Source: a virus
Taxonomy: Duplodnaviria; Heunggongvirae; Uroviricota; Caudoviricetes
Reading direction: 5' to 3' (one strand)
IMG/VR virus record: IMGVR_UViG_2563367158_000001
DNA length: 35,389 bases
Of the stretch, positions 33,329-35,389 are shown in pieces (position 1 is the first letter of the stretch; each line of letters opens with the position of its first letter). The position numbers were made by a program, and so were the translations under genes. The notes beneath the pieces are model-generated. The model was not told the origin of the DNA. It searched no databases and saw only the letters and a list, made by a program, of their open reading frames with translations.

Positions 33329-34111
33329 ATGCATCGTATAGACACGAAAACCGCGCAGAAGGATAAGTTCGGCGCGGGTAAGAACGGTTTTACCCGTGGT
33401 AACCCCCAGACCGGCACGCCTGCCACCGATCTGGATGATGACTACTTTGACATGTTGCAGGAGGAACTTTGCAGCGTGGTGGAGGCATCCGGTGCCAGCC
33501 TGGAGAAGGGGCGGCACGACCAGTTACTTACCGCACTTCGCGCGCTGCTGTTAAGCCGCAAGAATCCGTTTGGTGATATCAAATCGGATGGCACGGTGAA
33601 AACGGCTCTCGAAAACCTTGGTTTGGGAGAAGGTTCTGCGTTGCCTGTTGGCGCACCAGTTCCTTGGCCTTCAGCTACGCCGCCGACAGGCTGGCTGAAA
33701 TGCAACGGAGCAGCTTTTTCTGCTGAAGAATACCCGGAACTGGCAAAGGCTTATCCGACAAATAAATTGCCTGATTTACGCGGTGAATTTATTCGTGGCT
33801 GGGATGACGGACGTGGAGTGGATAACGGAAGGGGATTATTAACGCTTCAGGACGGTGCGATTGTCAGTCATAACCACTATTGGGGAATCTGGACTTCACG
33901 AACTAACGACCAGACTCTGGAAAGTTTTACAGGCACCACGATTTTAAAACAAATCACGCCCCTGTCTCCGGCCATTGACTTCGATAATTACCCAATTCCC
34001 AACCCGGCTATTACAGAGGGTGGTGTTGTTGCGGCAACGACTAAACCTGCAGGTGCGAATGAAACGCGCCCACGAAATGTCGCTTTTAACTATATTGTGA
34101 GGGCTGCATAA
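33329..34111 (+). CDS. side tail fibre protein (phage tail collar domain)
   Basis: 260-aa ORF with the tail-collar motif ([25 protein letters not shown]). Confidence 0.8.
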
Positions 34112-34716
34112 TGAATAACGCAGAATTAAACAGTGAATTAATTGCCACTATGGCAGGAGAAATTACTGTTTATAACTTTGATGTCGTGAGTCGGGAGTAT
34201 ATTTCAGCTTCAACTGAATATCTTGCTGTTGGTGTCGGCATTCCTGCATATTCCTGTTTAGATGCTCCAGGCGCATACAAAGCTGGTTATGCAATCTGCC
34301 GTTCTGCAGATTTTAACTCATGGGAATATGTGCCAGACCATCGCGGTGAAATCGTCTTTAGCACCGAAACGGGGGAATCAAAAGAAATTACTGTGCCGGG
34401 GGATTACCCTGAAAATACGACCACTTTTGCACCATTAACGCCATACGATAAATGGGATGGTGAGAAATGGGTAACAGATATCGAGGCACAGCATAGCGCC
34501 GCAGTAGATGCAGCAGAAGTACAGCGCCAGTTGCTGATTGATATTGCAATGGCTTCCATCAGTCTGATTCAACTGAAATTACAGGCCGGACGGAATCTGA
34601 CGCAGGCAGAAACCAACCGACTTAACACGGTGCTGGATTACATTGACGCGGTGACGGAAACAAATACCAGCACCGCGCCTGATATTATTTGGCCTGCTTT
34701 TCCTGAGACTGATTAA
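34111..34716 (+). CDS. tail fibre assembly protein
   Basis: 201-aa ORF starting [24 protein letters not shown], typical Tfa-like chaperone directly after the fibre gene. Confidence 0.8.
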   Translation: MNNAELNSELIATMAGEITVYNFDVVSREYISASTEYLAVGVGIPAYSCLDAPGAYKAGYAICRSADFNSWEYVPDHRGEIVFSTETGESKEITVPGDYPENTTTFAPLTPYDKWDGEKWVTDIEAQHSAAVDAAEVQRQLLIDIAMASISLIQLKLQAGRNLTQAETNRLNTVLDYIDAVTETNTSTAPDIIWPAFPETD

Positions 34717-34945
34717 CCTCAATCAATATTGGTTCCCCTTTCTCATTAATTGTTAGCTCCATGCCCTGAGGAATTTCTGTCATAGTAAAAAACCAGTTGT
34801 CCTCCGGTAATTCAATAGCCCCGGTCACATCATGAAGACCGGGGATTACTTCAGTCAAATTAACTGGATTAAACAGGCGCACAATAAACCCTCCAGGAAA
34901 AAGCATTTGATGATGGTCTGCCGTCGAACATCTGGCAGCGGACAT
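34685..34945 (-). CDS. putative alternative tail-fibre chaperone on opposite strand
   Basis: 86-aa minus-strand ORF converging on the plus-strand tfa gene; start uncertain; function inferred from position only. Confidence 0.35.
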   Translation of the reverse strand: MSAARCSTADHHQMLFPGGFIVRLFNPVNLTEVIPGLHDVTGAIELPEDNWFFTMTEIPQGMELTINEKGEPILIEVNQSQEKQAK

Positions 34946-35327
34946 AAAAACCGGTATTTGTTACCTGATCATCCACGATCATTGAAACGTGAACATTATT
35001 AGGTGTGCTCTCGTAATCTGTTCTTATTCTTTCCGCGATACTGATAAAACGTGAAAGTTTAGGCAGTGCAATTGGGTAAACGACTTTAGCCAGTCCATTA
35101 TCATTAGACCCACCCGTTCCAAAGACTTCTATTGCACCATCTGACCAGCGAATCCATGCACCATTGGCATTAGCTCCTCGCTGAATGATATATCTGGCTT
35201 CTCCCAAACCAACGTATATGAAAATGCAGAAATAACGAGCAAATGGCATCATTCCTGCTTTTAGTAAAGAGATTGAGCATGCTGGTAGGTTATATACGGG
35301 TATCAACAAATGAGCAGAACACAGCAT
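34869..35327 (-). CDS. putative promoterless alternative tail-fibre C-terminal cassette
   Basis: Minus-strand ORF whose translation (QRGANANGAWIRWSDGAIEV) parallels the tail-collar region of the plus-strand fibre ([18 protein letters not shown]); the annotated Met at 35327 is probably spurious. Confidence 0.35.
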   Translation of the reverse strand: MLCSAHLLIPVYNLPACSISLLKAGMMPFARYFCIFIYVGLGEARYIIQRGANANGAWIRWSDGAIEVFGTGGSNDNGLAKVVYPIALPKLSRFISIAERIRTDYESTPNNVHVSMIVDDQVTNTGFYVRCQMFDGRPSSNAFSWRVYCAPV

Positions 35328-35389
35328 TACTGATAAATGCGCTCGAGTGCGCAGGAGGTGAGCTGATTTTTGAAGACAAAATATTCTAA
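35279..35389 (+). pseudogene. Gin/Pin/Hin-type serine DNA invertase, N-terminal 36 codons ending in an in-frame TAA at the window edge
   Basis: MLVGYIRVSTNEQNTALLINALECAGGELIFEDKIF matches the invertase N-terminus including the catalytic Ser region (RVSTN.QNT); stop at 35387-35389 where intact homologues continue. Confidence 0.45.

Follow-up and report, generated by a model that had tools for sequence, protein, structure and literature searches.

The last 2 kb of a 35,389-nucleotide stretch of Escherichia coli prophage DNA (IMG/VR record IMGVR_UViG_2563367158_000001; the whole stretch is termed the window here) approximate to the right end of the e14 element and carry an invertible tail-fibre segment, beside which the gene for a serine invertase, pin, is cut off after 35 codons of homology. 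The locus is a standard e14/Mu-type fibre switch, though one that lacks an intact adjacent invertase yet works like its family: the segment is found in both orientations beside the same truncated pin, in genomes that are otherwise identical over some 20 kb. We consider it likely that this is an active orphan switch of the Din type, akin to e14 P and Mu G, and that it is inverted in trans by a Pin-like invertase encoded elsewhere.

Crossover sites and the two orientations

Two sites of 26 bp, inverted relative to each other, bound the segment. The left, pixL (33606-33631; CTCTCGAAAACC TT GGTTTGGGAGAA, with its core dinucleotide at 33618-33619), lies inside the fibre gene, where it encodes ...ENLGLGE, and the right, pixR (35199-35224; TTCTCCCAAACC AA CGTATATGAAAA, core 35211-35212), is in the matching frame of a minus-strand open reading frame (ORF; ...YVGLGE...). 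A repeat finder gives the pair as an inverted repeat of 18 nt with one mismatch (33615-33632 / 35198-35215). The 15-nt core that they share, TTGGTTTGGGAGAAG, is present in exactly two copies in the 35-kb window, one per strand, as against 0.09 matches expected from shuffles, none of 100 of which reached two, and it is the same as in the published repeat of the e14 P segment, given as 5'-TTGGTTTGGGAGAAGG-3' by Kirigo et al. (NAR 2025, PMC12529663). Other inverted repeats nearby, 13-nt pairs at 34656/34953 and 34127/34160, are short and off the module boundaries and are taken as chance.

The segment itself comprises 1,591 bp (33620-35210). Its inversion in silico joins fibre codons 1-97, which form a constant part outside it, in frame to the minus-strand ORF, and so replaces the present fibre of 260 amino acids (aa) by one of 210 aa, directly followed by an ORF of 65 aa. 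The 210-aa protein (P0001) exists residue for residue in public assemblies, on 13 contigs. For the flanking DNA, use was made of GCA_052935415.1 (L003), which was retrieved by exact-protein look-up of the 260-aa fibre, is identical to the window's last 12,061 bases and extends 8.7 kb further. When 33620-35210 is inverted in L003, three other assemblies are reproduced with no mismatch: L012 (GCA_048001845.1, a 4.82-Mb chromosome) over 20,633 bases, L015 (a Logan assembly) over 18,197 and L017 over 11,161. In L012 and L015 the truncated pin is present with an ATPase gene downstream, as in L003; the L017 contig ends inside the segment, before the pin/ATPase region. The complete genome in the flipped orientation is NZ_CP181453.1. 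A second sub-lineage, with 105 differences from the window in 12 kb, is in both orientations too (L005 versus L014 and L018; 2 mismatches after the flip), from which at least two independent inversions have followed the truncation. In all, 24 of the contigs read have the window's orientation and about 12 are flipped.

The original prediction, made from the letters of the window, was of a Gin/Pin-type invertible tail-fibre cassette starting at 33790. Its type is upheld by the sites, by the in-frame flip and by the finding of both orientations; its left limit is not, with pixL at 33606-33631 falling outside, and of the two intervals proposed for an inverted-repeat search (33750-33900 and 35150-35280) only the second holds a site. 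The absence of crossover sites and of orientation heterogeneity had been named as what would tell against such a cassette; both are present, and both favour an active switch. The further suggestion, that with a truly truncated invertase fibre specificity would be locked, a reading that would leave the Collar-type fibre fixed and the silent cassette as decaying baggage, has in its favour that the invertase is really down to 35 homologous codons and that, in K-12, the e14 P segment is reportedly fixed when pinE is deleted (PMC12529663). It is nevertheless extremely improbable, and at the level of the population refuted, given the opposite orientation beside the same truncated pin, with no mismatches over 20.6 kb in L012 and 18.2 kb in L015, and given that the second sub-lineage repeats the pattern. 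The single orientation in all carriers of the truncated invertase that phase-locking would leave is not what is seen, and the two cassettes and their two sites are undamaged in each of the loci examined.

A different type of explanation has the two orientations older than the truncation, with the module of pin stump and ATPase gene spread later by recombination and no inversion since. That it is very unlikely follows from the window's own lineage, in which orientation is the sole difference across 20.6 kb that takes in both flanks of the segment, and the same holds in the second sub-lineage; import of the module would leave a recombination tract, or need identical donors twice. What gives the idea substance is that the module occurs in mosaic prophages at thrW, prfC and ssrA, with left flanks about 97% identical and the module itself 96-100% identical, so that it has moved by recombination. 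Prophages at prfC and ssrA, from about 16 complete E. coli genomes, have the pin-ATPase junction at 96-97% identity, and the truncation is therefore old and has been spread by recombination; these prophages carry other fibre cassettes, intact and in either orientation. Comparison of prfC prophages with one another (L008 versus L009 and L010) was set aside as proof of inversion after truncation, these being mosaic, with left flanks at 97% and partner cassettes that differ, and so only suggestive. Homology between L003 and L008 runs to the equivalent of window position 33637 and restarts at 35197, i.e. there is a mosaic break at both sites.

That flipped versions might be assembler choices or errors is scarcely credible, even with the complete genome of strain CREC-591 (L007), whose segment is chimeric and frameshift-ridden, to lend it support. 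The flipped form is in independent NCBI and Logan assemblies of different samples, with a clean in-frame fibre and no mismatches, and, as an assembler yields the flipped form only if flipped reads exist, its appearance is itself evidence of inversion.

As to the means of inversion, general RecA-dependent homologous recombination between short inverted repeats is pertinent in that the sites share 15 identical bases (18 with one mismatch) and the exchange can be placed only within the repeat. Efficient RecA-dependent recombination in E. coli needs roughly 20-30 bp, a length that 15 bp falls below. Further, with about one third of assemblies flipped, at least two events and only 0-2 point changes per 20 kb, the rate must be high, and the repeats are the sites on which Pin enzymes reportedly act (PMC12529663). 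A RecA-driven origin is, on these grounds, very improbable.

Viewed against the Din family, the locus has two inverted sites of about 26 bp with conserved half-sites around a 2-bp core, a crossover inside the fibre gene with in-frame swap of C-terminal parts, a segment found in both orientations, and two convergent cassettes, each with a tip and an assembly or accessory gene, albeit that the 65-aa partner is not a detectable Tfa homologue. The feature missing is an intact serine invertase (about 184-193 aa, with Resolvase and HTH_7 domains) beside one site.

The truncated pin gene and its replacement

The pin stump, at 35279-35389 on the plus strand, has its ATG at 35279 and a TAA at 35387-35389, giving 36 codons; the N-terminus of a Pin/Gin-type serine invertase halted by an in-frame TAA at the window end had been correctly read in the original prediction. 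Residues 1-35 are homologous to PinE (77% identity by tblastn), the homology ending at 35383 and being followed by TTC TAA. The stump has a Pfam match to the Resolvase N-terminus that is under the cut-off (3e-4) and a better one to phrog_8275, DNA invertase (3.5e-20). Megablast matches to pinE end 6 bases short of the window end and, on alignment, identity with intact pinE runs through ...GAAGACAA(A/G)ATA and then ceases. Relatives carry a PinE of 184 aa at the position of the stump. That the truncation is real, which had been left conditional, is confirmed by reading past 35389 in L003, where PinE is represented by residues 1-35 only with no continuation in another frame: with full PinE as the tblastn query, there is no further similarity in any frame in the 8.7 kb past the TAA. 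Exact-match scans of viral_contigs and genome_contigs with the junction sequence at the window end gave no match.

What replaced the rest of the gene can be delimited. The 36 nt downstream of the pinE stop in a relative recur at L003 15520-15555, and so nt 106-555 of pin have been replaced by 3,464 nt. Past the TAA in L003 are, in order, a 128-nt spacer, an ATPase gene, an Abi_C/AbiJ-like gene, a DUF4365 gene and the right attachment site, attR, with the three cargo genes between stump and attR at L003 12184-17728. The ATPase gene, on the minus strand, encodes 870 aa, is SMC/Rad50-like and has LmuB as its best PADLOC match (8e-27), with no partner gene seen; this stand-alone SMC/LmuB-like gene is probably an anti-phage cargo gene. 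Its homologues, 76-79% identical, occur alone in unrelated islands of other strains, which marks it as mobile cargo. The same slot beside pin is occupied in relatives by a LEM-3-like GIY-YIG gene. The slot looks like a variable hot spot for cargo and defence genes, turnover in which can cut into the recombinase gene.

A short sequence near the breakpoint also drew attention. The sequence CTTCTCCCAA, at L003 12062-12080 (window end +6 to +24), lies 12 nt rightward of the breakpoint; it agrees exactly with 10 nt of the crossover sites' inner half-site and has the orientation of the right site, which may be fortuitous or a relic of the replacement event. Truncation through Pin recombination at CTTCTCCCAA as a pseudo-site was considered and rejected, the breakpoint being off its centre and ATPase homologues elsewhere occurring without an invertase context.

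Inversion in trans

No other serine recombinase is detected by full PinE tblastn in the window or in the 8.7 kb beyond, and the enzyme must therefore act in trans. In the mechanism that we favour, the constant fibre codons 1-97 and the promoter lie outside the 1,591-bp segment with its two convergent cassettes, of which the one with a Collar-type tip and the Tfa chaperone is expressed at present and the one with a Gp53-like-type tip and the 65-aa partner is silent. Inversion exchanges the tip that is fused in frame to the constant part of the fibre, and might thereby change host range. The locus had its own invertase pseudogenized when the sequence after codon 35 gave way to the 3,464-nt piece with the ATPase gene, and a Din-family serine invertase from another prophage, or from a plasmid, would bind both sites and invert the segment, probably with the aid of a Fis-bound enhancer in the retained first 105 nt of pin.

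There is precedent. The e14 P segment is inverted by PinQ, PinR and PinE (PMC12529663); PinQ and PinR are from the Qin and Rac prophages, so that one prophage's invertase flips another's fibre segment, and the repeat is the same as here (Kirigo et al., NAR 2025, PMC12529663). A difference is that in K-12 the invertase of e14 itself is intact and trans action is an addition, whereas here trans action is the sole option. Potential sources are common: sequence like the 438 nt at the 3' end of pinE is present in 4,656 of 5,426 complete E. coli genomes, and, when the ATPase gene and the pinE 3' end were combined as a query, one or more additional matching places were present in 13 of the 15 chromosomes with the truncated allele (places that were counted, not inspected).

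Din-family DNA invertases need a Fis-bound enhancer in cis. A recombinational enhancer is predicted, from position and from a scan for G-N13-C 15-mers, at 35300-35363, wholly inside the retained stump. Its two candidate Fis cores of 15 bp, the proximal GTATCAACAAATGAG at 35300-35314 and the distal GCGCAGGAGGTGAGC at 35349-35363, have their centres 95.5 and 144.5 bp away from the core of pixR and thus 49 bp apart; a relative with intact pinE has two G-N13-C 15-mers at the same two distances from its adjacent site's core. For comparison, the enhancer of Hin measures 65 bp, with Fis sites at both ends, and is about 100 bp from a hix site (PMC3798978). The predicted Fis enhancer probably survives in the stump, and its retention would explain the compatibility of the stump with continued inversion.

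Several points weigh against inversion in trans as the explanation. Two of the 15 chromosomes with the truncated allele have no extra match to the combined ATPase and pinE 3' query, and for the remainder matches were only counted; for the window's own lineage, whose whole genome was not read, no trans-acting invertase has been identified. Comparison of the orientations can narrow the exchange to the 15-nt identical repeat but not as far as the core dinucleotide. At +7 of the proximal candidate Fis core there is G in place of the C of its equivalent in intact pinE, GTGTCAACAAATGAC, and with this non-consensus base the enhancer may be weakened. Further, in K-12 the e14 P segment is reported to be locked by deletion of pinE even with pinQ and pinR still there (PMC12529663), and trans action is therefore not to be assumed. 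The enhancer may, however, have been lost along with pinE in that deletion.

An extension of the enhancer proposal, speculative and on balance doubtful, is that the stump has been kept for a reason, the cargo insertion having spared exactly the enhancer-bearing 105 nt, and that the orphan switch is timed by the invertases of other prophages. The chimeric fibre StfE2 is reported to block adsorption of T2 (PMC12529663). If the extension were true, fibre choice or StfE2-like receptor masking would be set by a recombinase network across prophages and not by the phage itself.

Cassettes, setting and related switches

In the expressed orientation the fibre gene is at 33329-34111 on the plus strand and encodes 260 aa, with a Pfam Collar domain (8e-16) at residues 108-155, inside the segment, and matches to PHROG tail-fibre families with E down to 1e-79; public assemblies have an identical protein in 46 blocks. 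It is followed by the Tfa chaperone gene (34111-34716, plus strand, 201 aa; Pfam Caudo_TAP 6e-28; phrog_105, tail fiber assembly, 5.6e-92). These assignments of fibre and chaperone accord with what had been proposed from the sequence.

The two minus-strand ORFs that had been noticed converging on these genes are present as open frames at 34869-35327 and 34685-34945. The first contains the silent C-terminal part of a fibre (Sv'; 34869-35210, minus strand, about 109 aa plus stop), which is in frame with the crossover site and has no start of its own that matters. It had been thought to parallel the collar region of the plus-strand fibre. Pfam finds no Collar domain in it, and its likeness to that fibre is confined to LGLGE, the junction residues for which the crossover site codes. 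It is related to fibre tips of the Gp53-like_C type: this family is matched by four of eight homologues (best 1e-8), the window's copy staying under the cut-off at 0.015. Among PHROG families it matches phrog_2557 at that family's C-terminus (3e-21) and the tail fiber family phrog_2712 (8e-6).

The second, which was proposed to be chaperone-like by position, does have that position, and homology to Tfa is where the proposal fails. The ORF of 65 aa (34685-34882, minus strand), called by gene finders in L003-L006, has a GTG start that overlaps the silent fibre stop by 14 nt. It has no Pfam or NCBIfam match, and as a short Tfa it was pursued in several ways with no significant link: hhalign of the family alignments gives a probability of 0.5%, BLASTP against short Tfa proteins (146-147 aa) gives E = 0.04-0.6, the match to phrog_188 has E = 0.13, and an AlphaFold model (pLDDT 74, pTM 0.34), which has a small all-beta fold, finds no match in the PDB by Foldseek. 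It matches phrog_5400, of unknown function, over profile positions 1-66 of 145 only. The possibility that it is a truncated remnant is ruled out by its family, all of 57-73 aa and with the motif MRLFNP.T.TEVIPG.HD..GAIELP.DNWFF...EIP.GK, in Enterobacterales (Escherichia, Salmonella, Enterobacter, Citrobacter, Hafnia and Xenorhabdus); such conservation from Escherichia to Xenorhabdus makes it a real small gene. In the loci and annotated relatives examined, a family member directly follows the Gp53-like-type fibre tip.

The window opens with proA, from its start codon and with 99% identity to E. coli, followed by thrW, a tRNA-Thr(CGT) gene at 1369-1444 that is the left attachment site. After thrW come a minus-strand integrase ORF and then a prophage with Mu-like sheath, tube, tape-measure and baseplate genes (Pfam), the baseplate families upstream of the fibre being Mu Gp45, GP46, Baseplate_J and Mu Gp48. 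The element is a myovirus-tailed prophage integrated at thrW in E. coli. At least 40 nt of the 3' end of thrW are copied about 6.1 kb beyond the window end, at L003 18168-18215, which is attR, and so the prophage reaches beyond the window, whose end is a gene boundary set by whoever cut it and is neither a prophage end nor a contig end. In the best E. coli matches the RefSeq order is ymfQ, phage tail protein, tfaE, two hypothetical proteins and pinE.

The e14 P segment of K-12 (stfP/tfaP - tfaE/stfE - pinE) has the same order of ymfQ-like baseplate gene, fibre, Tfa, converging cassette and pin, the same repeat TTGGTTTGGGAGAAG(G), and a crossover likewise inside the fibre gene. The two segments are similar in length (1,591 bp here, 1,797 bp in e14 P), and so are the flipped shares: about 12 of the 36 contigs read here, and 33% of 562 deposited E. 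coli genomes for the e14 P segment (PMC12529663). Relatives of the locus are annotated pinE, tfaE and ymfQ by NCBI, as in e14. There are differences: pin here is only 35 codons; in the silent cassette, whose tip is Gp53-like, the place of a second Tfa is taken by a 65-aa non-Tfa partner; and the prophage looks full-length and is at thrW, whereas e14 is defective and at icd. Cargo after pin also differs, being the SMC-like ATPase, Abi_C and DUF4365 genes here and, in e14, mcrA in the slot next to pin.

In the G segment of Mu, with Gin, and the C segment of P1, with Cin, there is the same arrangement of a constant part outside and variable parts with accessory genes inside, and a serine invertase gene is likewise immediately outside one site, though here a non-functional one. 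Mu-like baseplate genes are upstream in this case too. The Mu G segment is 3 kb, about twice the length of the present one, and relative to Mu and P1 the fibre here is short (260 or 210 aa). With the H segment of Salmonella and its invertase Hin, there are in common 26-bp sites with a 2-bp core, and the predicted enhancer here, placed by position only, would be about 100 bp from the invertase-proximal site and in the 5' end of the invertase gene; Hin, though, switches a promoter, whereas the segment here is coding.

Some related loci have features of their own. In CREC-591 (L007, NZ_CP024821.1, 2873-5053), the segment changes orientation about 470 bp past the left site and four genes are frameshifted, a consensus as expected from a culture with both orientations. 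In L013 (GCA_036296285.1, 11391-14197) the fibre is flipped. Rightward of its crossover site the Collar part continues into an ORF of 273 aa that matches ADH_N; next come a LysR gene and, on the opposite strand, an intact pin of 184 aa that has a site of its own. This looks like a larger inversion between the fibre site and a more distant one. The thrW prophage of E. coli E7476 (L002, NZ_CP035817.1, 5484-8098) has intact pinE and an IS66-family element, ISCro1, inside the segment, where it truncates one chaperone gene. Three proteins (P0066, P0068 and P0095) carry the alternative fibre tip behind unrelated N-terminal parts, the joint being always at LGLGEA. P0095 has a Pfam match to the P2 major capsid; the capsid fusion may be an artefact or the product of a distant inversion. 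The crossover-site motif is a module boundary across phages.

The class of mechanism is textbook and trans action has already been published; what goes beyond routine is natural evidence for a trans-dependent orphan switch, together with possible enhancer retention. From a practical perspective, a truncated invertase beside an intact pair of sites is not to be scored in annotation as a fixed phase. More broadly, the natural inference that a dead invertase means a locked switch is corrected by what amounts to a natural experiment, genomes identical over about 20 kb that differ by the inversion only, and to the report of Pin enzymes flipping the fibre segments of other prophages is added a case in which action in trans would be obligatory.

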